This document shows positions 1-46,340 of a stretch of 49,996 nt of DNA, piece after piece. The stretch is taken from the NCBI GenBank assembly GCA_910592345.1, contig CAJVPI010000140.1:1-49996 (forward strand), read 5' to 3'. The stretch is from Paraglomus brasilianum (taxonomy: Eukaryota). The position numbers were made by a program, and so were the translations under genes. The notes under the pieces were generated by a model. The model was given only the letters and a program-made list of their open reading frames with translations, was not told where the DNA came from and made no database searches. Every line of letters starts with the position of its first letter. The first letter of the stretch is position 1.

Positions 1-277
1 AATTCGGGTGATCGACATGCTGATCGCTACTATCAACAACATTTGGAACCCCTGTATGGGGACATGTCCCATGACTAATTAGTAGCATGCATGTCATTTA
101 ATTTAGCATTGTATGCTTTCAAAGAGGTGTGATGTTTACTCGTCATACCGATAAACTTGCGAATCGTAAACTTGTTCACACAACCGGGTGCAATAGAGTC
201 AGCGGGACATCGTAGTCATTAGTAATAGTTCCTAATTTAACCGTTACTATCTGCTCATAAGCAACGGGCACTCGAAG

Positions 278-3042
278 ATGAGTTCATGGGAGGTTTTAGT
301 TCAGAACGCTTATAATAATGTACAAGACGGTAATCTAAAGGTTTGTACTATATATCACTCTCGCATGTCTAAAACAACCTATCAAATGATCAAAGGAACT
401 GAACCTTGACGATTTTACTCTGTAATCGTTATTATTTATCATCAGAACGCGTATGCTGGATACCTGAAAGCTGCTACCCTCTTACTAAACAAACTGGCCA
501 CTGAAGCTCCTACTAAAGGTGACGATCCTTCTATTGCATATACTTCAGTACTTGCATGTGAATTGTGTTCCATACAAAATAACGCGATTTAACCATTATA
601 TTTACTGCATGGATACTATCTATATTACATTCTCTTCATACATGCGGTGTCTGTTATACCCTCACAATATTACTAGCAGATGCCAATATTAAATCCAATA
701 GCATTCGTTCATTCCAACAGCTTAAAACATGCATACAACATGCAGAGGATATCCTCGCAAATCGAGTCATAAATGGCACTCTTCCGTCCCCACAATCATC
801 CTTCAACGACGTTACCCCATTGCATTCACCTTCAAGCAACCTCCCATTAGTACCATTCTCTCCACTCACCCGCCAATCACTCATGACCGTAAGTGCCCTC
901 GCCACTCTATCCAATAAAGTTGCAGTAACCAGACAAAAACCCGTAACCGATTCAAACGGAAGCAGTGAGCATGCAAACAAAGAGTTTCGTAAACACATGG
1001 AGGAGCTCCATTCACAGAAGGCCAGACTCGATAATATCAATGTGCATATACAAACTATCTCGACTAAATCACTGATTCACTGGGATGAGGACACAGTTGC
1101 GAAACAACTGACCATTATTGAGAGTCAACTATTTACAAAAGTAGATGTGAGGAAAGATTTCTTATCGAAAGATAAGAAAAGGTCTTCAGTACAAGCATGT
1201 TTGGATTTCCATCGATATTTGACTAATAGTCTTACCCATCAATTTATTATATTTGCTGATACGGTGAGATCAGGACAGAATCCAGGGAGAAGTCAGCAGA
1301 ACGACAATATTATTGCTCGAGGCATTAAAATTGCTTATCTTCTGCTACATGTTTATCGTAATTTTAATAGTTTTGCAGCCATAGTGAAGGCATTGGTTTC
1401 TCCTGAAGTACGTCGTTTACGCCGTCTATGGGTCAATCTTAATACACGTACTAGTCAAATTCTTAAGGATCTTGTAGTGTACATTAGTCCTGCCAATGAG
1501 TATAAAGCATACAAGGAGTTTCTCATCCAGAAGGTGGATTCATACCGTGATCATGAAGCTGGTGTGATCATCGTACCGTGGATGTTACCGCACTATGAAG
1601 AAATTAAGAGTGTGTCTCAGACTTGCGGTGATTCATCAATAGAGGCATTAGGAGCACGTAAACGTTCCTTTATCTTCTCATTGCTTGAACAATGCCAATC
1701 TAACATGATTTCAGCGGATGATGACGAATGGGGCAATACACGGAAATTGTGTTCGTCTGGATCTCGTGCCAAGGATACTATGGTTGTTGATAGTGTTACA
1801 ATGGCGTGTCCACCTGATTTATCTTGTTTAGGAGTTGGTGACCTTGGAGTATATCACTGGTTGGTGTCGCGTGTTTATCTGACAAAGAGACAGTTGGTGG
1901 ATGAAAGTTTGGTAATCGAGCCATTGGTTAATGGCGAACCAGTGCTCAGGGTAGATGAGGATGAGTTATATGATTACAATAGTGATCAGATTAGCGTTGA
2001 ACACGAAGATAGTGCGAGTGACTCTGGGGATGCCATTGATCAGAAGTCTTCGTTCCAGTTCCCAGGCAGGATACCGGTGTCTAAAACAACTGAAAGGTCG
2101 AATGAAGAGAATAGAAGTCTCCTTGAATTGCAATTGTCGGATAATAGATCATTACTTAGTTCATTAGAACCATATGTGATTCGTGGAGAGTCATCCACCG
2201 ATGGTAATAGTGATAATAATAGATTGAATGAGACAACAAAGGGGAATTCCAGTACAGCCACTGGTTCGCCATTTGATCTTTTGTCGCTTGACAAAACACA
2301 GACAAAGACAACAGTTACCAGTTATACCCCATCTGTTTCTCATGGTACAAGTACACCGGCAATCAACATACCACAGACGTCATCACGTTCCCATCCAACT
2401 CAGTCATCGCTTCCATCTGACTCATCAAAGTCACTCAATCCAAATGCGCCTGCATTTGTTCCTCGTAGCTTTGGTTCCAAATCCAATCCACTTACGGTGA
2501 CTGGATTTACTGTTCCTAAGACGACTCTTTCGTCCAGTCTGAATGATAAATTCGTATATACTCCATCGGCTACGAATGGGAAGACAATTAATGGGAATGA
2601 CGAGGATGATGTTGGGTTTGTATACTTGGGTGCCGATAGCAATACCAACAACACTGCTGGTGTTGAGGAAGACGATGAGAAGTTCGTGTACACGCACAAA
2701 GAGACTAACATGGAAGAAGACGATGATGAAACACCGTTTGTGTACTCGAGTAACAATAACGATGAAAATGGTGACAGCAATGATAAGTCTCCAATCCGAG
2801 AATCGCCCGAAGATACGTTTGTATATCAGCCTAGTAATGAAGACAAGAAGGTGCCTGGATCACCTAAAGCAACACCATATGTTATTGGACATAGTTCCAG
2901 TACAGGAAGCGATTCAGATGTGGGCTCTGGTAACGCTGAAATCGCACCAGTGTTTACCAAAGTCTCCGAGAGTAAAGCGGTGGAGAACATCGGCGGTGTT
3001 GATGAGTTGAACATCAAATTGAATACCGAAGCAACGGATTGA
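278..3042 (+). CDS. RasGEF (CDC25-like) domain protein with MIT-like N-terminus and low-complexity acidic C-terminal tail; exons 278-340, 446-518, 677-3042
   Basis: The 740-aa ORF contains VAKQLTIIESQLFTKV, RNFNSFAAIVKALVSPEVRRLRRLW and IVPWM, typical of RasGEF catalytic domains. Two upstream GT-AG-bounded exons join in frame (MSSWEVLVQNAYNNVQDGNLK/NAYAGYLKAATLLLNKL...). Confidence 0.85.
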
Positions 3043-3849
3043 TGTAAATTTATATTATTCATTTTGTGAAAGGTTGGTATTTAAATTGACTATTAGTCTG
3101 ATAGTTGGTTTGTCTGTCTGATAGTTTTAGGTTGTTAGTTGTCCTATTTATTAGGGAACTCTACGTTAAAGCCGTTTACGACTGTATTCTCTGTAAGTTT
3201 AGCTCGTTTTCCGTACAGTGAGACAATATAAAGTAGAACGTGGTTAACAAAATATTCGAGTTCCTGTCGATAAGCATGCAGAATCGGGTGATTCCATAAG
3301 TTATTCCATTTCTTATAAATTAAATTCAAATTTTTTCCTGTATAATGTTGCATGTTGTGGGTAATATAAACGGGAAGGGATGTACAAACTGTTAAATTAT
3401 CCGGTTAGATGATGAACGAGCATTGATACAATTGGCTAGTCTTCGCGAATGCCGAGACGCATAGAACCCTCCCAATAGAAAAATACGTATACATCTAAAA
3501 CTGCAATTGCCGACCAGTTGGCTCATAGGATAATAATAATACGTATTGTAGACATCAAAATTCTTCACTAATAGGGCCTTCTTCCATTGTGATATCTCGC
3601 GTTCTTGTTACTACTCGGATTAGCAAGTGATCTACATACAGTACCCGGGTGATCATCCATACGTGTGAAGTAAAAATTTCACTAACACGATGCAATAAGT
3701 AAATTTACTGCATACGTTTTATAAGTTTCACAGACTTATATAAATATTGAGTGAAAGATAAAGGCCTACGTCGAAGATAAAGATTTACGAAATTCTATGT
3801 CAGAACGTTAGTTATAATGTAATGCGGCGAGCATTGAAATGATGGAGAG

Positions 3850-7822: not shown

Positions 7823-9519
7823 TATAGATATCCCTGGAGAGTTTGATTTTAAAAACATAATAATAAGGGGCGATTATTTCTCCTTGAGCTTTCTTTAATG
7901 GTGCTGCTCCATAATAATAATGGATTTGATGTAAATTAGTTTCATATTAATATTTTTATACAGAGATAGCCATATTAATATACACAGTAAATAGCACAAT
8001 CAATTTAAACGCCTTTGACTTTTCTTTTCTCTTCATCATCTTGCTCGTTATCATCCTGCTTTCCATCTTGATCTCAATTTCTCACCTCTTCATCTTCAAC
8101 TTCAAACTCACTCTTTACTCTTGGGTGTATCTCCACCCTATGTTTTACATTAATGCAAAATATTTAAATCTCTTTGATATCCTATTACAATACATAATAG
8201 CTTAATATTATTACTGATAATTTTCATAGTGTTAAATAATACATTTTAGTTCTTTGGACTTTTAAATTCAAATAAATAGTAAGACTAAAACCGACATGTT
8301 TTATTTCTACTTAATATTAAATAAATCAATGTGTTTAGTACTTGATATTCTGTTCCAATTTTGGCCCCTCTGATTGGTGGCCGCAAAATCATGCGAACGG
8401 ACAAAAAAAAGCAACGTGTACCACGATGTCAAGTATGTCTGTTGTAACGCAGAGAGAAAAACTGAAAAAGATGATTTGAAGTCACCCATAAGCGACATAC
8501 AGCAGATCGGAAACACATAACGAAACGCGGAAAATTTGTCCTCAATTTGCACCATTCTCTGATTGGAGTTTTGCGTCCCTTTATTAGTTACACCTACGAT
8601 TGAACGCTAAAGGTGTACTTGCACTAAAAAGGCGCCATTATAAACCCTCATCTTAATTAAGTTATTATATTACTCATTAACAGTACCCGAATCAAAGTCA
8701 TTTGGAAAAAAAAATGACACGACTTCAGTGCAGTCATATTGGGCGGTAATGACCTTTGTTAGATTTTTGGAATCACAATTTGCAAGAAAAATGGGATTCT
8801 TTCAGTATTAGTCCTTATTTGGATTGAGCAGTCTGGCTGACAACCATATCTGATGCGCTTCATTCCTTCATCTCTGGTATTTTTCCCAAGTCAGGAAGCC
8901 TATGTTATAATACTAATACCCTTCCAATAAATGCTGAAAATTTCTACCACGGCTACGAAATAAATTGGCCGTTTGTTAATTTTTTAAATTCTCTTTAGTT
9001 GGCTTGGTTACTGGATTTATCATTTGACAATTGGTTCTGTAATCAGACTAGAATCACTTTATACAATTGTTTATGACCATGCATTATCTCCTCAAGAAGC
9101 TAGTCGAGGCCAGACTCGAGTCTCCAGAGAGTTGTTTTTCTCCGGCTTTTTTCCCCTTAGAGCTTCCAATGGCTGTAACGGTTTAATTACAATGTTTTCT
9201 TTTCTTCCTGCGGAACGTTTAGGTGGGAGGAAGAAAGACGATTACATTGTCGCAAGCAAATATGATAACCGTTTTTAAAGCTATTTATTGTACAACGTAA
9301 GACGGCATATTGTCCATTAATGACGTTACATATCAATAACACGTTGTCGTCACCGATTCATTGACTCATCGCCGTCGTTACTCCGACGATCTACTCGTTG
9401 GTTTGAAAAAGGATAATTTTGCTGAAAAATATTCCGAGACGTAGCACAGTATTCAGCCTTCCCCACGCTATTAATTGATCGTTACAGCGATCCAATTCAT
9501 TCATATTCTATCAACAATA

Positions 9520-10380
9520 ATGTCTTCTTCTTCCTCTTCTTCTCTCAATTCTTCTCCCACTTCTTCTTCCTCTTCCTCTTCTCCCCCTTCTTCTCCCCCA
9601 CCCCCCTCCTCTATTTCCTCTACTCGTGCTAACGAAAAAACGGCAAAGCCCAAAGTAGAACTAATATTCTCAAACTCTGTAAAATACTCTGTGCACAAAT
9701 CACGAATACATTACGAGAAACTATCTACATTTATTGAAGAATGGTTACGATATGTCAACACATTCAACTATCCATATACAATGTATTGCGACGATAGCAA
9801 AGAGGCATGCGAATGGCATTCGGAGAAGGAAGATGTTGTACAGAAAATCAAGGAACTGATGGAGAGCGAAGAGGGTACATACATAGATAGTCTGATCTTT
9901 GTGGCAGACAAAACGGTAAGTTTCATCCTTGATACATGTGTAGGTGCTCTGTTGAAAAAGGGATCCATGGGGTTTTGTATTCTCTTCATCTGATTTACAT
10001 TTAAAACTCCAAATTCGTATGTAGGGCGGCATTCTAACATTCGTGAAATACAATGTGGACTTTCTACTTCTTATTTTAACAGTGATATGTTTCCTGTGGT
10101 TTTTATTCTCTGAATCATTCGTGTCGAGAACCTCACTACATATTGTTGGTGGTACATTTCTCTTTAGATTAACGAAATATGTCGAATTACCATTTGCAAA
10201 CTATTTCAAATCACTAACCCGTAAAGACAAAACCGAATAGAATATTGATCTTCCAATTCATTGACTTCTTGCACTTTTTAAATTTTGTTTATTCATTTAT
10301 TATCACTAAACTGGGGGTTTTTTTAATAATATATCCATTAGGAACAAAATCATAACATATACTCTGATCACAAACATTAA
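9520..10380 (+). CDS. Hypothetical protein with Ser/Pro-rich N-terminus; putative exons 9520-9915 and 10342-10380
   Basis: ORF with a plausible globular part (KVELIFSNSVKY...IDSLIFVADKT), strong donor GTAAGT at 9916, a CTAAA branch-like site and TAG acceptor at 10341. Confidence 0.45.
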
Positions 10381-11622
10381 AAATGAAAAGTACTTACTTG
10401 AGAAATATCGCAAGTTTGATGAATACACTGATCAGAAGGAAACTGGCCTATTTTTTAGATGAAAACACATGAGCTAGCATGGCAAGACGGCAGAGATCTC
10501 ATTGGGATTATTAGGAAAAGCGAGATTGCGAACAAATCATCATAACCGGATTCTTTACTGGGACACCCTCGTCCCACAATTATGTGGGATTCTCTTCAAA
10601 CACGAGTCATCAACTGTCTTTACATGTGATATTGAAAAGTAGACTTGAATGACCCCTGTTTGTCGTTTGTGCTATATATAGCACTGTCACATCCAGACCA
10701 GAAAAAGCTGGCTTTTTTTTCTTTTCTTTTCTTTTTTTCTCCAGCAAGTCGCAATTCTTGTTTTTTTGTTTGTTTGTTTCACGTTTTCTCGAGTTTATTA
10801 TGTATCAGACAATATTCTGAATCCAAGAATTATGTACATTTATGAAATAAGAGGAAATACTATGAAACCAGGTCAAGGTAGCGAGAACATCACAGAGAGT
10901 ATAGATTGGAGAAAAGAACACGCAAGTATTTTACAAGAAAAAGAAAGAGTCGAGATTAAGCAAACGCTTTCGTAATCTGATGCGCGCGAGAAGTATATAA
11001 ATCCGCATAAGTTTAGGAAAAGGGAAAAAGGAAAAAATAAAAGCAAAAAAAAAAAAAAAAGAAAAAGGGGAGGGGGAGAGTCTAAAATTCACTGGTATTC
11101 TTTTTTTTCTTTGTAGATTTAGATGATGAGAAAGGAAGAGAAAAAAAAAAAGAATCAGTGCGTCTATATATTTTTCTTGTGTAATCAAAAAGGTGAATTA
11201 GAATTGTCTGTATCGTGAGAGTGATAAAAGAATATCATGTAGTAGAAACTGAATCGAATTAATCCAATCATACCCGACTCGATCCAGCAAGAAAAACAAA
11301 AGCCAGAAATCCTATTCTAACCATTTCCGAGGAAAAAGAAATCTATGTAAAAAAAAGAGAGAGAGGGAAAAAAGGGAGAGGAGTATAGAAAGATAGAAAG
11401 AAAGAAAGAAAGAGAAAAAGAGAAACATAGGCTACAAGGGATGCAAAAACCAATGCAATCCATTTTATAGGAATCTCTCTTTCTCTTTCTATTTTTGAGT
11501 AAATTTTTTTTTTCAAATCTTTTATAGAAAGCACAACCTAATATAACCCAAATCCAATAAGCCATCACCCATCCCCCGCCTTGAAAATTCCAAACACAAA
11601 AATACCAAGTAAAGAAAAACGT

Positions 11623-13453
11623 CTAACTCGACCGATTTCTCGCAGTTCTCACATTTGGACGCCTACCACCAGGACCTGTTACTCCAGCTTGTTCTTGCTT
11701 ATCTTTGTCCTTATTACCATCATTCCCGTTAGCATTTCCTGAAGCACCACTTCGTTTCGGCCGTCCTCTTCTCACGCTCCCATCTTCTTCCTTTACCACG
11801 CTAGAATTTAACGATTCGGAAGACGTCTCCGCGGTTTTTTTTCCACCCATTACCGCGTTTTTTTTTACACCCTTTGTAACGCGTTTCTTTTTTGGCGGGC
11901 CCTGTTCGGTGGACTCGTCCTCTTGATCGTTGTTATGAAACACGGTGGGAGCGGGTTGGGTTGGTTGGGCTTGTTGGGGCGGTTGTTGCGATTGGGGATG
12001 GGGAGGATGAGACGTTTTAGGGGAGATGTCGGTGCTGCCTTCAGTGGGTGGAGGAGTTAATGTAGCCGACGAGCGTTTTCTACCCTGATTTCCCCCATTC
12101 CCATTGCCGTGTACGTTCCCGCCGGAAGTACCAACACTAGTTTGCGTGGACACGTTCGATACTTCGACTATATTCATTGCTGCGGCCTCTGCAGTGCCGA
12201 TTCGATTGTCCGCTGGTAAGTTGACGGGAACGTTTGCCGAGAAAGTGCTCATCATACTCGCTTGTGCAGGCGGTTCCCCATGGTATGGGGCCTGCGGCGT
12301 TGTAATCGGGAGACGGATTGTCTGGACGAATGGTTGATTGCCAACAGGAGGCATCTGAGTGGCTACGGGAGTTGTGACAATTGGGGGCATGTCGGTGTCT
12401 TCAGCTGATGAAGATGATGATGGTGAACCGTGAGCACCGCGATATGCACGAAGCTCTTCGTCATAGCGTTCCTTATCGGCGAAATAACGGTCTTCGTAGA
12501 CCTAGATTGACGAAATCGTGGTTAAGAAGAGTGGGAAGGAAGCGAGCTTTGATTAATGACGGGGATCTAGGAAAGAGAGGGTATATGGATGTATTTGATA
12601 GGATAAGATGTATAAGGTAGAAATAGGCACAAACGCACACACCACACACACCACACACACCACACACACACCACACACACCACACACACCACACACACAC
12701 CACACACACCACACACGCCACACACCATACACACCGCAAACCACACGCACCACACACTCTACGCACTACACGCTACACACTCTACGCACACACTCTACGC
12801 ACTACACCTGCACACGCTGTACATGGCGCACACATATAGACATCATACCTTTTTCTGCTCAGTCGACAAAGCTTTCCATCTGCTCCCAATTAACTTTACC
12901 AATTCTTTCTGATTGGCTTCCGGATTGTTGGCTTTCATCTCAGCTCTGATTTCGTTGCTGAAAATGATGTAAGCGGTATTTGGTTTCTTTGGTGCGTTTG
13001 GATCTTTATTATATGATTTGCGACCTTTGCGGTGAGTGCGGGGGGTCAGTGTGGTTGTTGTGGGACTGACGGGAGTGAGCGTTGGAGGGAGTATGCTAAC
13101 ATCGCGGGGGATAAGTGCTTGGAACTCATCGACTGCAGTTGCAGCTGTTCGCAAGGCTGTTGCGACTGATTCGTAAGCGCGAGCGAGCTAGGTGGATGAA
13201 TGGATGGGATGGATGGGATGAGATGGATGAGTGAATTATTGAATGATTTATTAAACAGGGCGTGTAGAGACGAGGGTGTGGTGATATGACGTGATATAAC
13301 GTGATATTGTCCAAGGAATACAGATTTTCTGCCATGTCAAAAGGGATTACTAGCATGAGAGATCAGAGATTGAATACATACATCGTCGCGCTTGACGGTC
13401 AGCATAGCTAGGACTTGTGGGTCAATCTGTCGCGGATGGGGATTGGGATCCAT
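11623..13453 (-). CDS. HMG-box chromatin protein (HMGB/Nhp6/Hmo1-like) with C-terminal AT-hook; exons 13453-13382, 13187-12849, 12501-11623
   Basis: Splicing gives KDPNAPKKPNTAYIIFSNEIRAEMKANNPEANQKELVKLIGSRWKALSTEQKK|VYEDRYFADKERYDEELRAY, a canonical HMGB-type box. Donors GTATGT and GTATGA; AT-hook RRGRPKR in the last exon. Confidence 0.9.
12632..12810. repeat. CA-rich micro/minisatellite (CACCACACA)n in intron 2 of the HMG gene
   Basis: Directly visible tandem repeats, grading into CACACTCTACG variants. Confidence 0.95.
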
Positions 13454-13579
13454 GGTAGACGGCAAATTGTAGCCTATAGATTTGAATTGTTGAGTGGGTG
13501 TGAGTAGTTGCGGAGTAGAGAGTAGGGTTGAGGGTGGATGGTCATTTTGTTTAATACGCGTCAGCTGTATTGCCAGTAA

Positions 13580-13730
13580 TTATTGTTGTTGTTGTTGTTG
13601 TTATTATTATTATTGTTGTTGTTGCTGTTGTTGTTGTTGCTGTTGTTGCTGTTGTTGTTGTTGTTGTCTCTTTCTTTTCTCTTTCTCTCTTTCTCTCTTT
13701 CTCTCTTTCTCTTTTTCTTTTTTTTTTTGT
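13580..13730. repeat. Compound microsatellite (TTG/TTA/CTG)n plus (TCTCTT)n upstream of the HMG start codon
   Basis: Directly visible. Confidence 0.95.
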
Positions 13731-14639
13731 TTTATAACTTTTGACTAAAACTATTATTGTTTTGTTTCAGTCGTCTTTTTTTTTCTATCTATTCTATTTT
13801 ATGTATGACTATGTCGGTTGTATGACTATCGTTCCACGGCACTTTATGTAGTGTGTGGGTTGTTGTTTGTTGGTTGTATGTAGTTTGTTCTTCACCAGTT
13901 TTGTAGTGGGGGAACAGGAGTGGTCTAGTTGAGTAATATTCATTTCCTTGGGCTACTCCCTCTTATCTCTTACCTTTTTTGTTTGTGGAGAAGTGAGAAA
14001 AGAAACTTCAGTGGGAGTTCTGAAGTCGGGGGGCTTTGGAGTTTGATTGATGTTGGAGAGATTAAGATGAGAGTAAATGTTGGTGGTAAATGTCAGTGGG
14101 ATGTGGAGTAATTCGCCGACTTAATTTCTTGGGGGATAATTTCTGGGTGATTGGAGTATATTTGTATATGGGGTTGGGTGAGATTGGTTATATGTTTATG
14201 GATGGGGGATATGAAAAATCACTATTTGATTTATTTTTGTTTGCAGATGAGAAGAGCGATTTTATGGAATTAGTTGGTGTGGGACAGAAAGATTGGGGCA
14301 TAAATCCAGCCCGTCCGCAAAATAGCGAGGCTGATGGAGAGTTATTAGGATGGGTTGATCGTATGGGTGGCAATTGACTAATATGGGAAGATTGGGCGAA
14401 TGGGAGAGTTGGAGATGGAGTGGGATGAATGGGGTGATTGTTAATGCATATCGGACATGCAGTACTTTGGAGTTATACCGATAATATATTAGGAAAGTGT
14501 AAACTCAATAATTACTCATTTTAATTGGTTTGTTTATTATAAATTGATAGTTATAGAAATATCCGGTATTGTAATAAGCGGGTAATTGTATTAGAATTGA
14601 AATAATCATTGTTACTATTACATAAATATAGCGATTATA

Positions 14640-14765
14640 ACAAGACAAGACAAGACAAGACAAGACAAGACAAGACAACAACACAACAAGTCACAACACA
14701 GCACAGCACAACACAACAACAATAATAGTAATTAACACTAACACTAACAACAACAATAATAATAA
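14640..14765. repeat. (CAAGA)n / (CACAA)n / (AAT)n microsatellite cluster
   Basis: Directly visible. Confidence 0.9.
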
Positions 14766-17700
14766 CATCTGGTCTTATTATTAGACTTACTTATTTATTT
14801 ATATATGCTCATTCAATTTATTCATTATTATTTATACTTATCGATTTGTTTGTTTATAAATTACGCAAATTAGTCATTAGTGATCGAAATAAATTTCATC
14901 TGTGTGCTATATAAATCAGCCCCTGAATAACTCGGAGTTTTGTGACTGATAAAGAAGATAATTCCAGTGTTGGAAAACAGGAAAAGGCAAACCCTTTCTC
15001 TGCTATAAGTAACTACGGATACGAGGAAAAACTGAATTATATAGTAAATTCGTAAAAATAAATAAAATTAAACTCCGCCATCCCATTCCCCCCACCTCTC
15101 CCACCTCCCCACCTCCCCCCTCATCCCCCTCCTCCCTTTTCTAGCAGAAAGAGAAACTCTAATGCAAATAAAACTGGCGGTCAAAAGCAGCCAAACTATC
15201 TTTTCCAACCCAGAAAGAAATAAATGACTTTTCATAAATTAATCGTAGTAACACATAATACTTGATGGCGTACTGTGGGAGCATTCGATGTATCATTACT
15301 GCATGATGCAATTGTTTCTGCTATTTTTGATAAATTGTTGATAATTTTGCCTGAATGCATGCGAGCGAGTGCATATATGAGTGTGCATTTGTAACACAGA
15401 TCTCGGGAACTTATCAGGAATCACATCTATTAATAAGCATACAAAAACAGAAGAAAACAAATGCATAGAACGAAAACATTGAAATTTAATAAATTGGATT
15501 ATTATAAGTAAATATAAACTCTCCCATCAGTTACTAAACCCCCCTCTCATCAATTACTAACATTACTTACTACCAGTGTCTATCAATTCGCCCCCTTTTG
15601 TTCGGACATTTCCCGATCATCGTAACGCTCATTTTCAGGGATAACGCTAATTGTTTACTCCCAATAAATCAATCTGTGCAACCTAACGCTACATTGACAT
15701 TTCACAATTTGGAACAAAGCAAAAGGGAACAAGGTTGGATATATTAGGAATATTGGCGTTACTATTTTTGTAATAAGATACGTTACTGAATGAATAACAG
15801 TGGATGGGATTTTGCGGGATAATATTGGATTCCGTGGGATTAAATGGGATTAAATGGAATACGCAACAAAGACAATGCTATGAACATTAAGGTTAATACT
15901 CTAACGTCTCAATAGTGACGATAAATAGTAACGATAATAACGAACAGTGACAGCATTAGGAATCGAGTGCGACATGAATTCAAAAATGGTCATTACAGAC
16001 CCCGCAATAAATATTAAGTCAATATTAATGTGCAGAACTTTAAGGTTTTCCCAAATAATTAAAAACCTCTTTGTATACATGAAACCAGGAGTGCCATTAT
16101 AAACTGTTTCTCGCGAGCAGGGTGATTTTTCATCTTGACTTTTTATGTCTACTACTGCTTGCTTGAGTATAAATCATCATCTCATCATTATCGTAGAAAT
16201 CGGGCCAAGCACTCTTTTTTCCGGATCAAGCGATGAAGGTTTGCATATAACTGCCTATTTTGAGCGTTTCTGTAACTCCCAGACGCAGGGATGAAAAAAA
16301 ATTTACCGTTTGGTTAGATGTACCTTTTGGTATTTCGTTACAATAATAATGTTTACTCTACTTGGCTTTGTGTTTTACGCCCGCAAAATCTCTCCACTAT
16401 CAGAGTAAATCCGAAAATGTCTCCCATAGTCATCTGGTCGCATAAAAAAGACTTTTCCATACATTTATTGATAACAAATTTGTGCACGCTTGTCCAAATC
16501 AAGTGGAAGACTGAGATATTGGGCTGAGTATTACATAACGCCGATTTGGAATCTCGATACAAAGGCTTACATGTGATGTTTTCTTAAATGAACGCAACTG
16601 TGTCAGCCAAAATAACCCATTTAAAAGATTTACCTGCAAGCTTTGTTCCCAAGATAAGTGACTGAACAACAGGTCAGCCCACAATAAAATCCATATCAGT
16701 ACAGTCTGTAACAAGTGAACATAACGCCACAGAAACAGTTCAGGGATTTAATTGTTAAGCCGATAATCCCCTGTAGTTATTTTATTTTGGCCAGATTCCG
16801 CAATGCTGTCTGTCATACCCAAGAAGTAAAGCTTGCTATTAAATTTGCTGTTTGAGAGTTTACTGCAAAACAGAAAGCATTTCGCAAGTTCGTCAGAATT
16901 TCTCTTCAACTCGTACTTGAATGTTAGTTTGTTTTCATTAAATCAATCACAAATCGACTTCACTAGTGAACTTTTTCGTGGGTAATTTTCCTTGGTTCAA
17001 TCAACCTTACAATAATAACTTTGATGTATATATGTAACGCGGGTACAAGTGAAATTACTTGCCCACGCATCGAAATGAACCTGAGGAAGAGAACACTAGA
17101 AGTATACTGATAAGAACAAAGAAATAGAGAATGAGATTTTTAATAATAATGAGATGTAGTATAGGGTTTTCACTAGAATGACGCAAAGAAATAGGTTAGG
17201 TAATACTTTAGAAATTATCATGCAATGTTAACATCATACCGGTATACTTGAATATAATTACGTTATTAAACCAAACAGATCATAGCAACGTCCTTAAGAA
17301 GAACATGATATGTTCCAAGTCGTAAAATTTGTCGTGCATTTATCGATTTATTATTATCAAGGATAGCCCCTTGCAAATCGTAATATCAATCAAATGTGTT
17401 ATCAGATATACACATAAGGCAAATTCCAGAAAGTTCCAAAACGCGTTGGTTTCTTTCACAGATTTCAGATCGACACTTTTCTTCTGTGACAATGAACGGG
17501 TAACTTGTATTATTTGCTGATTCAAACTTTAATCTTGCGTCAGCTAATATCATTTCATTCAATGCCATTAGAAGAAATGATCCCGAACGTAATTATATCA
17601 CTCTAATATCCAGAGTTGCCGCGCGGATCTTCCTGGCATTCCCGAGTGATTACCGTAGATGTACGTATCATGTACTGCATCCGGGCACTTTTATTTTCAA

Positions 17701-22139: not shown

Positions 22140-22260
22140 TTTAAGGACTTAAAAACTATTATTATTAATACACGCCTACATTAAAACCTATCATTACTAA
22201 TAAATTAGGAATAACAAGTCCTGTCAGGGAATAGGTTCCCGCGTAGCCTAAGCTGACTCC
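22140..22260 (-). ncRNA. Putative Fanzor omega-RNA scaffold / element right end
   Basis: Immediately 3' of the Fanzor stop: hairpin GGGAA-CCTA-TTCCC (22227-22240), long-range stem AGGACTT/AAGTCCT (22216-22222 with 22144-22150) and inner CTAAT/ATTAG hairpin. The position matches known omega-RNAs. Confidence 0.55.
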
Positions 22261-23802
22261 TTTTTTGTAAGATATCGACGAAGAATATTGCGAGCACCAT
22301 TAACATCTCTATCAAGGTTTGTTTTACATTGGGGACAGCAAAACACCTTAGCTTTTTTATGAATATAACCGCAGGATCCAAGTTTTACTTGTGTTACTAC
22401 TCGACAGGGATGCTCACGTGCCTTATGGATCAAATGCTGTTGAAATTGACAATGTGACCATGTAGAACCAATGCGTCGTCGGACCATTCCTTGAGTGCGA
22501 AATTCGATTAGTAATATTATGCGATAGTTTTCACAAAGCCATTTAGCTAGTTTGTGATGACAATCATTCACAAGACAACGGATCCTCTTATGAGTGCATA
22601 ACGTAATCTACAATTGAAAGTAGTATATATGTTAAATTATAAATAAATATTAAATAAATAATTTAATTAATAAAATTTACCTGTAACGTTTTCGCTTATT
22701 TTTTTTTCCATGAATACAATCGCGTTTACTTTGAAGTTTGTCGCATGCATGACTCAATCGCTAAATTCGGCCAATGTCGTTTTTTACAGCTACCCCACTT
22801 GGATCATAACCTGTCATGAATGTACGTACACCTGGATCCAGAGAAATCACTCCTGATCTCTCCTATTACATTATTAAATATATAATTGTTAAAGTTTTAA
22901 TTTAATAGATAATATAATATAATAAAAAAATTAGATCAATACCTTTTGAAATATAGGGCCTTGGTTTTCAGCCCGTATTTCAAGTGGTCTGGGTATACAA
23001 GATAATATTTCCCTCGTCGATTCATAACAAGGCGGCTACGTGTATCATATTCAAGCTTATTTGGAAGAGGTTTGATTTTAGAGAGAAATGAATATTCGCC
23101 ACGAGACTTGCCCCAGTGTTTAGAAAGTATTGTAATTGATTGTTGAGGATTTTTTGGAACGGAGCTTCATCTTGAATTTTTTACGATTGGCAGCAAAATT
23201 GGAAGAATATCCTTTAAGCAAGTCGTTCATTGCTTCATCGCGAATGTCATAGGGAGTTTAAGTTTGGTATCATTGAAGTTTTTGGCGTTGAGACATAGTG
23301 CGCGTAGATCCTTCTTTTTTTTCTTTTTCGACGGCGGTAAGGCACTGATTGTATGTCCATCGTGCTGTTCCCATCCATCTTCTGAGTTTCAGCCGCTCCT
23401 GCTGGTTGGGATAAATGCGAATACGTTGTGCCTTGCCTGCTGAAGGTTTCTTGGAACTCTTGAACCTCTTGGGCGGCTTCTCTTCTCCTTCTGCGGTTTG
23501 CAGCCTAACGTAGTCCATTATGTCGCGCCACAAACACTGTGACGATTGCGAGTAGGTCTTCTGCGAGCTCTCCATTGGTATAAACTTCTGAACCGAGAAC
23601 CACGAGCCGTGTCCCATTTTTTTCAAAGATTCACTCCACAAGTTCGGACACAAGCGGTCTTTTCGGGTAACCACCACTTCTTCGACTCCTTTAGAGTATA
23701 TTTGTTCCAAACCCTGCGTTTCCAATTGAGCCCTGTGATCTGTCCGTAGGTTGGGGAGCTGAGGACCTCCTTTGTTTGAACCGTTTTTAGTGGTGTTAGC
23801 AT
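22248..23802 (-). pseudogene. Fanzor2 (eukaryotic IS607-type TnpB) RNA-guided nuclease, degenerate, with two spliceosomal introns (22863-22942, 22608-22680)
   Basis: Motifs in order: WNKYTLKESKKWWLPEKTAC, GSWFSV, RIRIYPNQQERLKLRRWMGTARWTYNQCL (OrfB HTH), PYDIRDEAMNDLLKGYSSNF, RuvC-I VISLDPGVRTFMTGYDP, CHHKLAKWLCENYRIILL, WSHCQFQQHLIHKA, Zn ribbon SCG...CPQC, RuvC-III LDRDVNGARNI. Multiple frameshifts and small deletions. Confidence 0.92.
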
Positions 23803-25186
23803 TGAGGGGAGAGATTATGTGTTTACGATTTTAATTTTCAAATGAGCAAAATATTGTAATGGTTGAAGAGTTTGGGGGATAATGTCTTTAAATACGTTTA
23901 TGGTTGAATGGCGGAACCGAAAACATGCATAAAACATTCAATCTTATATGGAGCCTACGCGCATAAAAATGTGGGTTGTTTAAGAATGTGAGTTAAGTGA
24001 GTTAACCGTGTTTAATCATCAAGTAGACTTGGTTCGAAAATTGCACAACGGTCAACTTGCGATTGTTATTAACTAGGAATAGTATTAGCTATAATCGAGA
24101 TACGATAAACAGTGTTCATGAGAGGCTATTGTTGTGTCGATTAATGGAAACCGTTGCTTGACCTAATTGATTTTGTTCGCCACCAAATAAAGAATGATAC
24201 ATAGTAAAATAATAATCTTATTCTTGTGCTCAAACATAACTGATGACGATAACAAAAAACGGAAATTTGCATGTTTAAGCAACCTTCTTCGATGACGAGG
24301 CTAATAATAATAATTTACTTTATTGAACTGGAACAGTTGGGACTTGTACATAAATGCTTATCGCTTTGCAGTAGCACTGCTTTTGATCGTGAATATTTCT
24401 GCTTGAAATTACCGGATTTTGTTGAATTCCACCACATCATCAGGTAAACGTTCCGCATACACGAAAGATCATTATAATTATAACACAATGCAACAATATA
24501 TGTCATAACTTCAATTATAAGTTTTCTTAACGAAACCATACGATGGATGGCTATCGTTTAATTAACAGTCGTTATCATCCTTCTGGAAGTAGCAACGGAA
24601 AAAGAGCTTCGTTATTGTAATTTTAACACAAATAACATATCGAGTTATTATTATTGGTTGGGTATGTCCACAGCAATGGGGAAATTTCATATGGCCAACC
24701 ACGTATTAGTAGGAAATTAAATATATAGTCCATCCACTTTAAAAATATTGGAATCGTAAATATATTTATTATTTGTTCTTTAATACTAAAAGTTGCGCAG
24801 ACTCGAAGCGCTCTCTAAATTTTGATAAAGTGTTCTCAATAGTTTGCCTCCCCAAACCGATATGATGAAATGGGCGAGGGAGGCCCTAAATTGAAACTAG
24901 TCTATTTGCGCATTACACTTCTCAGTTCTATTATAAAATAATCAAAAGTCCTTTTTTTTTGGAGATACACTGTTTCCACGACTACCAATGCTATAATAAC
25001 TATGTCTTTTTTGATGTGATATTTTCTATACGTGTTGTTTTTATGGAATTCTTATTTTTATTAATATATATCATCATTTTATAGACAATTAATTTAACTG
25101 CCCGGTATGTCAAAAATTCTAGTTTTGAGACTGACTACGAATCCTTTTGCGACAAGCTATTGCAATATTAAGAACACACAAACTTA

Positions 25187-27200
25187 TCAAAGGAATAATC
25201 CCTCAATACCACCTTCAGCAGCAGTTTCCTAAATGAAGACAATATTATAGATTAATGTCTATCCACAAAACAGACAAAACGTCCAAGTGGACAATCAATA
25301 GTCAATAATATACTGACCTTAACAAACATTTCAAAGTATGAATATATGATTGTAACGGCCAACAGTATACCGGTACCGGATCCAAGAGCACCTGTTTATC
25401 GCAAAATGGTTTGTAAATATGGCAATTCATCAATGTTCTGCCCTAAAGTTATTCTTCTTACCGAGTAGATCAGCCATAACGGATAAAGCACCGATGCAAG
25501 CACCACCAAAAGCTGCAGCTGTTGGAATTACACGCTTCAACTCCTTGTACACAGATGTGTCACGATGACCGGCAATTATTATTCCTTGATCTTTGAGTTG
25601 TTTAGCGACATCGCGAGGAGAAGAATTGGAAACTTCAATCCACGTCTTGGAAAACAAAGCACAGGCCGACAAAGTGAACGTGACATATAAAACCGTGTGT
25701 ATAGGATCCTTAAGTGCGTCGAGAATGCTATGTGGAGGAGAGATGAAATACGCAAGGCCGCTTGAAGCATATTGCTGACTAGAGCCTTCATGTGTCTGAT
25801 ATGAAAAGAAAAAGATTTTAGTATATATCCGCAAGAGCAGTTTATTCCCTCGTACTCTCACGGTACTCACCGACCATACACCAAGCATTCTAATAAGGAT
25901 ATTCTCTGGAAATCGGTTGTACATCATTTGTGAGATAAGGAAGATATTCGAAGTCAAGGCTGATTGAAGCATAATGGGCATATTTGATGTATAGAACAGT
26001 TTGACTGGGTAAGTGCTACGCTGTCCACGGGCTCTGCGTGAAATAACAGGTATTTCGACTCTGAATCCCTGGAGATAAATAACAATGGCGAAGACGCTAA
26101 CGGTGGCCAAAAGATTCATAACATTGGGCAAGTTATTGCGATAGAAAGCCTCTTTCAGAGCACGAGTCTTGTCACCACGAGTAATAAGCAAATGGAACAA
26201 TGCGATAATGGCTCCTTCGAACTCAGGTCCACGCCCGGTATTTACAGTAGTCGGGCTGAATGCCTTCCAGATAATAGACTCGCAAATATTTGTGGCAATA
26301 AATAGCGAAATTCCCGATCCGAGACCATATCCTTTTTGCAACAACTCATCCAAAAGCATCGATATTAACCCAGCCATGACCAACTGAATGACCAACAGCA
26401 AACAGACACCAGCCCCAATTTCGGACGGATCACCGTATAGTCCCGTCAAGACAGACACAGTTGCTTGACCGAATGCAAACACCATTGCAAAGAGTTTTTG
26501 CGCACCGTTAAATAGAGCACGGTCTTCTTTCAGAGAATAGTCAACGTCGATAAGACCAGCACCGGCAAGAAGTTGCATGATCATTCCTGAAGTCACAATT
26601 GGGGTGATTCCGAGTTCCATAAGAGTTCCACGGTTAGAGGCAAGAATTACACGCAGCCAGTAGAGAGGGTCCGATGAGTCTGACGACATGATGCCATATA
26701 ATGGAATTTGGGAGCATACTAAAAAGATAAACAGCGTGACTGCTGTCCAAAGAATCTTCTGCCGGAAAGGGACCTAGTGCGTAGATATATGCATATGCAA
26801 ATATTGTCAGCATGGCAGTAAACGATGTTAAATCATAAAACGACATTATAAATGTTAGAATCACTTGTTGTGAATACTCTAACAATAAATAAATTTATGT
26901 GAAATATTGCATGGCTAATAAACTGTTCCCAGTACCTTTCGATCTGGTGCAGTCACTTCAGGAAGTATGGACATAAACGGCCTGATGAGATGAAGGAATC
27001 GGACTGGAAAGAAATAATAAATCAACGTAATGTTAGTACGAAACAAAGACTTGCCACATACTCAACAAACTCTTTCTCGCATGTCTCTTGTGAGATGGTT
27101 TGAAATCGCATCTCCTGCCAGGACATAACGACATACTGGTACTGATGACCTACAACTTGCTAACAGTTGAAATAAACCGAAACTGATACGCACATCCCAT
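25187..27200 (-). CDS. SEC61: Protein transport protein Sec61 subunit alpha; exons 27200-27194, 27003-26936, 26773-25871, 25795-25462, 25391-25318, 25228-25187
   Basis: [19 protein letters not shown]...[63 protein letters not shown]...[19 protein letters not shown]...[21 protein letters not shown]. All introns GT-AG and in frame. Confidence 0.98.
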
Positions 27201-44677: not shown

Positions 44678-45785
44678 CTATTCATGTTTCTTTCTCGGAA
44701 CAGAGTATGGCCGATATCTCTGTCCGCCATCTTTTACCTCCGCGTCAGAACGGCTCCTCGACGCCCGGGTTGACGACTGCGAAGCATGGTCATCTACCGC
44801 TGACGTTTTCGTCGAAGCTGGCCGATTATTGGAAGAGTGATGAAATTTTTCTTGTCGTTCTGAAAGTTTTGACAAATCCTTGGATTCGCTCGGTTCTTTC
44901 GGTTTTTGTTGTTGCATTTGAGCAAGCTTACGTTCAAGTGCTTGGATCTTTGCGTTAGTGCTGTCGAGCGACAAGGATTAAATTTATGAGTACCATTGAC
45001 GAAATTCAAAGCAATAAAAACGTAATTGTTGTAGAATCGAGTACCTAGCATGAAGCATCTTGTTTGCTTTCAGTAATGATATGGTAGTTGGACGGTTGTT
45101 GGCGATTGTTGTTCGTTTGTTTGAGGATCCAAGTTGACCATCTTCATTATTATGAGATGTCTAAGAGCAGAGCATGGCATTTTTTCCATTAGTAGAGCAC
45201 ATCTTTTCGTAAACAGATTACAAGAACAAGAGATATTAATACAAACCGCATATGCAAATGTTACAATCAAGGGGCGACCTTTGATAACCTTTGAATGCAT
45301 AGCTGTCATGGCTTTCAAAGCTTCCTGGTGCCAAATCAGAACCAAGAATATATAATAAACAAAAAGGAAGCGTATTAGAATGACAGAGATTATGAAATGG
45401 AAGACAACGTTTCCTGTATAGAAACAAACACCAACCTCTTTACGACTGTACTCTAAAAAACAGTACCCTCGAGGTTGGCCCCGACGAGGCCCACTTTTGT
45501 GAAATAAGTAGTCAAGATGTGTGATCTTTCCATATGGCTCAAACAATTTTACTATTGTATATCTAGCGGGGATCAAGAATGTCTACCAGGTTTAAATAAC
45601 GCCCAATAAATAAACCGCGAAAGTATATACAATGTTATATTTACTCGTCAACTGCAGCATCCAGATTTCCAATATATAAGCGCTTGTCGTCGAGCTGTGT
45701 TATTGAGTATAGGATAAATGCCAGCACCAAGAACGTATTCAAGACGCAACAAGCATTAGCTCACCTTGGTTGAATCTTGTGTCAT
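44678..45785 (-). CDS. RBM18: RRM protein, RBM18-like, multi-exon
   Basis: DKRLYIGNLDAAVDE|YTIVKLFEPYGKITHLDYLFHKSGPRRGQPRGYCFLEY...GRPLIVTFA, C-terminal AKIQALERKLAQM and RYRPY. Confidence 0.88.
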
Positions 45786-45919: not shown

Positions 45920-46340
45920 TTCAGAATTCCAGACAACTTTGGTTTTGAACAAAGAGCAAAGCTCTTTACATTTTATTAACAAACAAACAATATAATATAA
46001 TAACAGCAACAAGAACATCATCACTCCTCCAACGTCTCTTTCTCCTTGGCTTTCAAACATTTCCAAAATTTCAGACAACTTTTGAACAAAGAGCAAAGCT
46101 TTTACATTTTTTTTATTAATAAATAAATAATATAGTAAAATAAATAATGGCAACCAGAACATCATCACTCCTCCAAAATTTCAGACAACTTTTGAACAAA
46201 GAGCAAAGCTCTTTACATTTTATTAATAAACAAATATATAATATAATATAATATAATATAATATTGAATATAATAAATAATGGAACCAGAACATCATCAC
46301 TCCTCCAACGTCTCTTCTCCTTGGCTTTCAAATATTTCCA
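45920..46340. repeat. Complex local tandem duplication (three partial copies of a CAGACAACTTT...GAACAAAGAGCAAAGCT...AGAACATCATCACTCCTCCAA unit)
   Basis: Directly visible repeated blocks starting near 45930, 46070 and 46180. Confidence 0.85.

Follow-up and report, generated by a model that had tools for sequence, protein, structure and literature searches.

The window, a stretch of 49,996 nucleotides from Paraglomus brasilianum (contig CAJVPI010000140.1), holds a decayed element of the IS607 type in which the Fanzor2 gene is interrupted by two short AT-rich inserts (Table 1). Very probably, these inserts are U2-type spliceosomal introns that were gained once by one IS607/Fanzor2 subfamily of arbuscular mycorrhizal fungi and have spread with it, the copy in the window being dead.

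Table 1. Features of the Fanzor2 element and its surroundings; positions are those of the window unless a related locus is named.
Feature	Position	Strand	Remarks
Whole IS607-type (IS607EU) Fanzor2 element, decayed	22172..24052	minus	~1.9 kb
Left end	24032..24052	minus	ACCGT junction, then TTTCGAAC
Separate repeat-like stretch where the TnpA 5' half would lie	23790..23968	.	far higher copy; borders approximate
IS607 TnpA serine recombinase remnant	23273..23736	minus	C-terminal half only; overlaps the Fanzor frame; tblastn with pieces of L001 TnpA
Intron 0 site of relatives	23659..23660	minus	no intron in the window copy; VVTRK-DRLC in TnpA, WWLPER-TDC in Fanzor
Fanzor2 exon 1	22943..23736	minus	N-terminal extension, HTH/WED/REC part; PF12323 match; tblastn in several frames
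Intron 1	22863..22942	minus	80 nt, GT-AG, phase 0, 8 codons 5' of RuvC-I Asp
Fanzor2 exon 2	22681..22862	minus	RuvC-I DPG, Asp at 22838-22836
Intron 2	22608..22680	minus	73 nt, GT-AG, phase 2, within KRYR-LR
Fanzor2 exon 3	22248..22607	minus	zinc finger and RuvC-III Asp (22307-22305); PF07282, NF040570, alignment
Right end and predicted omega-RNA scaffold	22172..22265	minus	ends TGTAGGCGT; ~28 nt deleted in the window copy
Host Sec61-alpha gene (part), next to the element	25229..26773	minus	three introns, 25229-25317, 25392-25461 and 25796-25870
Dual-frame region	L001:213-1043		window equivalent 23273-23736

The original prediction had described two AT-rich inserts with GT-AG ends and the lengths and phases listed in Table 1, and this was confirmed in its coordinates and in its junction peptides, ENQGPIFQK-ERSGVISLDPG for insert 1 and KRYR-LR for insert 2; the donor of intron 1, given there as GTATTT, reads GTATTG. 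The borders are AAAAG-GTATTG...GTAATAG-GAGAG for intron 1 (GC 10%) and TACAG-GTAAAT...TTGTAG-ATTAC for intron 2 (GC 9.6%), and stop codons are present in all three frames of each insert. The two AT-rich inserts are not a chance occurrence, since in the 50-kb window GC contents of at most 11% over 73 nt are confined to three stretches, the inserts themselves being two of them. The third such stretch is located at 46202-46294. The branch-point consensus is YTRAY and, read by eye only, YTRAY-like sequences (TTAAT, TTAAC) lie near both acceptors, as is expected in DNA this rich in A and T.

Preservation of the reading frame, which had also been claimed, holds at both junctions but not around them, and the inserts, described as lying inside a Fanzor ORF, have no intact ORF around them in the window copy. 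Exon 1 is frameshifted by indels relative to the related locus L006, its 5' part overlapping the TnpA remnant, and exon 2 contains a premature TAG at 22763-22761; position 22761 is occupied by another base in further copies in DNA run X5. A 10-nt deletion near 22603, 5 nt past intron 2, shifts the frame of exon 3, and another deletion near 22395 has taken out the EEYTSK motif. This motif holds the shifted catalytic glutamate here, which in Fanzors is placed six residues N-terminal to the zinc finger (PMC13565253); the window copy has thus kept both catalytic aspartates and lost the glutamate motif. Because of the frameshifts, the stop codon and the deleted catalytic glutamate, the window copy is a pseudogene, predicted to be inactive.

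Assignment of the family to Fanzor2 follows from its domains, in that a TnpB-like RuvC, a C4 zinc finger and an HTH were all found (PF07282, PF12323), with protein P0013 scoring 135.8 bits against NF040570 (cut-off 100). The family motifs LDPG, EEYTSKTC and RD.NGA are those of Fanzor2, with DPG at RuvC-I and the glutamate displaced to a position close before the zinc finger. Through locus L001, the gene content of an IS607-type element was also recognised, a TnpA with a MerR-type HTH and a serine recombinase domain being encoded upstream of Fanzor; the first exon of this TnpA alone scored 109.7 bits against NF033518 (cut-off 110) and matched PF00239 and PF00376. The TnpA remnant of the window is 67% identical to that of L001 over 109 aa (tblastn). 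The stretch that replaces its 5' half has ~49% identity to TnpA 5' halves, a contig depth of 8077-16126 in DNA run X3, as against 15-66 on the flanks, and loose contig ends at 23790 and 23968. It is present in L015 too, there with a CCG run.

Both termini of the element were located by comparison with related loci. The ACCGT left junction is common to the window and six of seven loci, with ACTGT in L006, and the flanks upstream of it differ among these eight rows, L002, L016 and L017 having one common flank. At 22180-22172 the right end is common to the window and 14 loci, with a fifteenth, L008, ending in C, and the flanks diverge beyond it. The right junction reads GGCGT and the left ACCGT, a short core being common to both. 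The predicted omega-RNA has two stems with 14 pairs, two of which show changes on both sides. No terminal inverted repeat was present among the 25 longest of 71 repeats, and no target duplication was found; nor did an empty site come to light. An earlier candidate for the left end, TAGG at 23956, was dropped as related loci show ACCGT at 24052. RNA contigs of runs X10 and X11, which come from one study, skip 22239-23709 and correspond to an internally deleted short derivative that has kept the right end.

The family is clearly multi-copy, since the depth of the element body is in excess of that of its flanks and its ends are shared between copies with differing flanks. In X3 the body had a contig depth of 147-3632, versus 15-66 for the flanks, and in X5 mostly 12-52 versus 2-4.5, paralogues of the window element being visible here only as contig depth, which is not the same as copy number.

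A pattern scan of metagenomes gave 104 matches, which resolved into 30 loci. Intron 1, with GT-AG ends, occurs at the same site in 11 of the 30 (42-86 nt), a count that includes both L005 and L006, which are identical at this intron; its lengths cover all three classes modulo 3, and every copy has an in-frame stop. Intron 2 is intact at its own site in 10 of the 30 loci (51-89 nt). In L020 intron 2 has a GC donor and has lost its acceptor, and in L022 and L030 it is damaged or partial, with just the 3' end retained, for which reason these two loci stand outside the counts. Six loci were left unscored for introns, namely L019 and L028 (38% and 22% identity) and L025-L027 and L029, where the match is C-terminal only. 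Both introns are missing from 11 loci that span both sites (L001-L004, L008-L011, L014, L016 and L017). Eight of these non-carriers hold another unspliced intron, either intron 0 (L001-L004, L009, L016 and L017) or a different one (L014), and hence they truly lack introns 1 and 2 in their DNA. The intron of L014 marks a fourth intron site (L014:126-190; 65 nt, GT-AG, 31% GC), L014 being a GC-richer relative.

Homologues are continuous across both sites, and removal of the inserts restores the homologous frame. Comparison of intron positions among relatives, the check put forward with the original prediction, thus turned out in its favour at the same two sites; as to intact homologues encoding protein across the two segments, which would have spoken against it, the homologues pass both sites without inserts, and the inserts hold stops. 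Gene models of Rhizophagus clarus, themselves predictions, read GPMFQK-EGS and (K/Q)KRYR-L(R/H) at the corresponding positions (GBC05058.1, GBC01471.1 and GBB95212.1), and the R. clarus model P0068 breaks on L018 at the borders of intron 1 (residue 321/322) and intron 0, the DNA of L012 and L018, 90-92% identical in protein, serving as a stand-in for that of R. clarus. An origin from introners or introner-like elements was rejected, because introns at different sites were no more alike than shuffled sequences: comparisons of introns 0, 1 and 2 with each other gave z values of -1.3 to 0.7 against shuffles, versus 4.1-9.9 for same-site introns, the intron 2 sequences used being truncated.

One locus, L011, is without both introns exactly at the GT-AG borders and reads as the spliced product of the carriers. 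Its flanking exon letters are those of the carrier subfamily, with 89-91% identity to L006, L013, L021 and L024, and it nests among the carriers, with a subclade support of 96 in the first tree (from which L022 and L025-L030 were omitted) and 100/97 in the second (which also omitted L002, L003, L005, L016, L017 and L019). An AU test, set up with the first tree already known, rejected a topology in which the 11 carrier rows were forced together without L011 (p = 0.012). L011 would be a transcript after splicing or else a DNA copy from which both introns had been lost via a transcript and, given its exact spliced sequence, splicing at these borders would be needed under either origin. In the trees, a single branch (support 99-100) accounts for introns 1 and 2; L014, with its different intron, is the nearest non-carrier to it, and neither intron occurs in sister subfamilies from that same group of fungi. 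We infer a single gain of these two introns, in one subfamily and later than the origin of the family, with the proviso that a single tree oversimplifies a history in which the subfamilies are mosaic.

If L011 were a DNA copy, the introns would still be real, and the family might in addition spread or be edited via RNA, L011 representing a cDNA-type double loss and the absence of intron 0 from the window subfamily another. This we consider unlikely. The sequence of L011 continues for 278 nt beyond the right end and is without a poly(A), which favours such a copy, yet a read-through transcript would account for it, and among the DNA contigs of runs X3 and X5 there is none in which intron 1 or intron 2 is skipped. 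Intron 0 is cleanly missing from the window and L015 and is present in relatives to either side of them in the tree, as a route through RNA would predict, but recombination explains this pattern equally well: L009 is 98% like L012 on its 5' side and 69% on its 3' side, L021 is 89-92% like L001 on its 5' side and 74% on its 3' side, and the TnpA side of the window copy is equally distant (79%) from both groups of elements with intron 0. Since the elements are mosaic, the absence of intron 0 in the window is not callable as a loss. L004 is likewise among the mosaic elements.

We also weighed the reading that the inserts are AT-rich insertions into a lineage that was dead by then and have GT-AG ends by chance. 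All carrier loci recovered here are indeed damaged to some degree, and no contig bridging intron 1 or 2 was found in six RNA runs (X10, X13, X14, X11, X12 and X18, a subset of the ten runs marked 'RNA' or 'RNA?'). However, the Fanzor body is barely covered in these six runs, so that the lack of junctions says nothing against splicing; as a positive control, introns of the Sec61 gene were spliced in RNA contigs of three runs. The ends of the inserts have been kept despite a twofold variation in length, L011 is without both inserts exactly to the base, and between two carrier subfamilies the majority codons give a dS of 0.32 and a dN of 0.035 (dN/dS 0.11, 187 codons, p = 8.5e-13), and therefore the protein was under purifying selection after the introns had been gained. 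Chance insertions into a dead lineage are, in our estimation, highly improbable. A joint at 22436-22966 in X11 was not accepted as splicing, as its ends differ from the intron borders. The proposal of spliceosomal introns in a gene of the fungal nucleus, which would have been expressed by Pol II, is supported at the level of the family; the window copy is a pseudogene, and no spliced RNA of it was seen in the six runs.

An origin of the element from bacteria or an endosymbiont, with its DNA wrongly joined to fungal sequence during assembly, can practically be dismissed, for although IS607 elements are described as bacterial in origin (PMC3673617), this one has GT-AG introns, among its named relatives the nearest are gene models of Glomeromycota, contigs of X3 connect both of its ends to the window flanks, and a viral scan with the Fanzor alignment gave no relatives among 26 pattern matches. 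The viral scan for TnpA gave two loci among 65 pattern matches, covering just 34-42 residues. Residence in the fungal nucleus, as opposed to contamination, was thereby upheld at the family level, on the strength of the introns, the Glomeromycota relatives and the contigs that span the ends.

The exon of the neighbouring Sec61-alpha gene has an identity of 89-91% with six proteins of Glomeromycota and of at most 84% with those of other fungi, and it groups with the Glomeromycota (clade support 98); as judged by this gene, the host is an arbuscular mycorrhizal fungus. The 75-nt Sec61 intron at 25796-25870 is without an in-frame stop, such that a stop-to-stop frame runs through it, and it was spliced in three RNA runs. 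Elsewhere in the window are a RasGEF-domain gene with a PAM2 motif at 583-3039 (plus strand) and an RRM gene at 45073-45582 (minus strand). Host Sec61 shows the same distance to each of the six Glomeromycota. The window copy of the element has a dS of 0.48-0.49 to L012 and L018, for which L007 gives values of 0.35-0.43 to the same two loci. The GC3 of the element is 29%, the frames of the host having 35-46%, and the GC content of its introns is 10%, versus 30-37% in the three Sec61 introns. The low dS, together with the contrast to the host in GC3 and intron GC, suggests that the element may have been transferred from an AT-richer mycorrhizal fungus with its introns already in place, a reading drawn from the dS of the element itself, and decaying repeats may lose GC anyway. 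The original description of a long-adapted eukaryotic resident holds for mycorrhizal fungi as a group, but the host of the window may itself have received the element from another fungus.

An active element would be transcribed by Pol II and spliced by the U2 machinery to give an RNA-guided nuclease, and its ends and the analogy with IS607, which inserts into short dinucleotide motifs (bioRxiv 10.1101/2023.08.09.552727), suggest that the serine recombinase would move it as DNA via a CG(T) core. Transposition at the DNA level would keep the introns in new copies. Fanzor, with the guide RNA of the right end, is predicted to cut empty (A)CCG sites, and as the predicted (A)CCG TAM differs from the GGCG of the right end, the element would not cut itself. 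Movement as DNA, which had been thought probable, is supported for the family by its ends, its IS607 gene content and the differing flanks.

The intact relatives have a layout of their own. Intron 0 is present in 11 loci, some with and some without introns 1 and 2, and includes a CTAAC in 10 of 10. Its removal alone from the near-intact L001 and L004 opens frames for TnpA (275-276 aa; 274-276 aa when L021 is included) and Fanzor (590-592 aa, with all three catalytic motifs), which overlap by 764-779 nt in L001, L004 and L021, the third frame containing 11-17 stops (12-17 in L001 and L004); one intron thus serves both overlapping frames. In all 11 loci examined (L001-L004, L006, L012, L016-L018, L021 and L023) the TnpA frame opens at a CTG, and between the preceding stop and this CTG no ATG lies in frame; the CTG has A at -3 in 10 of the 11 and G at +4. 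The Fanzor ATG is the next ATG, 52-61 nt after the CTG, and two of the R. clarus models begin at it. Short upstream ATGs are out of frame in 10 of the 11 loci; that of L023 is in frame yet closed by a stop. The best reading of this arrangement would be leaky scanning from the CUG to the AUG, alternatives to which would be a further exon upstream or transcription starting elsewhere.

We put forward, with rather more doubt than assurance, the possibility that in mycorrhizal fungi the two-gene operon of IS607 has become one spliced, dual-coding mRNA, with a CUG-started TnpA, the Fanzor2 AUG 52 nt on in the +1 frame and a single intron for both, and that its history has involved stepwise intron gain, the swapping of halves and horizontal moves, introns included, between deep fungal lineages. 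If the dual coding from CUG and AUG were true, it would bear on how a bacterial IS obtains two genes from one capped mRNA and on how the transposase stays low relative to the nuclease. The family would also offer a dated series of intron gains in a bacterial-type gene that was ancestrally intronless, with four intron sites spread over its subfamilies, and L001 and L004, being near-intact, are usable for testing. Intact members would, moreover, represent compact Fanzor2 nucleases of natural origin, for which a CCG-type TAM is predicted. It is this dual-coding, CUG-started layout of the intact relatives, with its stepwise gain of introns, that is perhaps the lead worth keeping, though our confidence in it falls short of even. 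No literature was found on this family in mycorrhizal fungi, on the shared intron or on the CUG start in a search that covered subscription journals thinly.

Fanzor genes were reported by Jiang et al. (2023; PMC10530073) to have captured spliceosomal introns, at up to ~9.6 per kb, and these were read as a sign of long evolution and adaptation in eukaryotes. The inference from Fanzor introns to long eukaryotic residence is already published there in general form, and the result for the window is a modest one, confirming on a dead copy the generalisation that Fanzor genes gain introns. In that study, introns were predicted by gene finders, expressed as densities per family, with a Fanzor1 on a Helitron as the worked example, whereas the present case concerns Fanzor2 on IS607 and sister subfamilies with and without introns, a contrast that allows the gain to be assigned to a branch. 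Two of the supplements to that study contained none of six names of mycorrhizal genera.

IS607EU elements with Fanzor2 have been described by Bao and Jurka (2013; PMC3627910), in a review (PMC13565253) and by Yoon et al. (bioRxiv 10.1101/2023.08.09.552727). The present element is like them in its serine-recombinase TnpA and Fanzor2, its lack of terminal inverted repeats and target site duplications, the DPG of RuvC-I, the glutamate shifted near the zinc finger and the conserved right end. It is unlike them in its Glomeromycota host and intron-bearing genes, and in that the Fanzor of intact relatives overlaps nearly all of a TnpA without an in-frame ATG. The word 'intron' was absent from the text available for Bao and Jurka and for Yoon et al. 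Overlapping ORFs are known from prokaryotic IS607 (PMC3673617), and N-terminal extensions of Fanzor2 have been reported in an article (PMC11832414) in whose accessible text 'overlap' has no occurrences. The Fanzor2 of Naegleria lovaniensis, NlovFz2, has a measured 5'-CCG TAM (Saito et al., 2023; PMC10432273), and the ACCGT left junction found here predicts a similar TAM. Spliceosomal introns are also gained and lost in other DNA transposons, including CACTA elements (PMC4158355) and Tc1-like elements of molluscs (bioRxiv 10.1101/656579), to which this family is alike in that respect; those are, however, DDE transposases of old eukaryotic superfamilies, whereas the introns described here belong to a recently imported IS of bacterial type.
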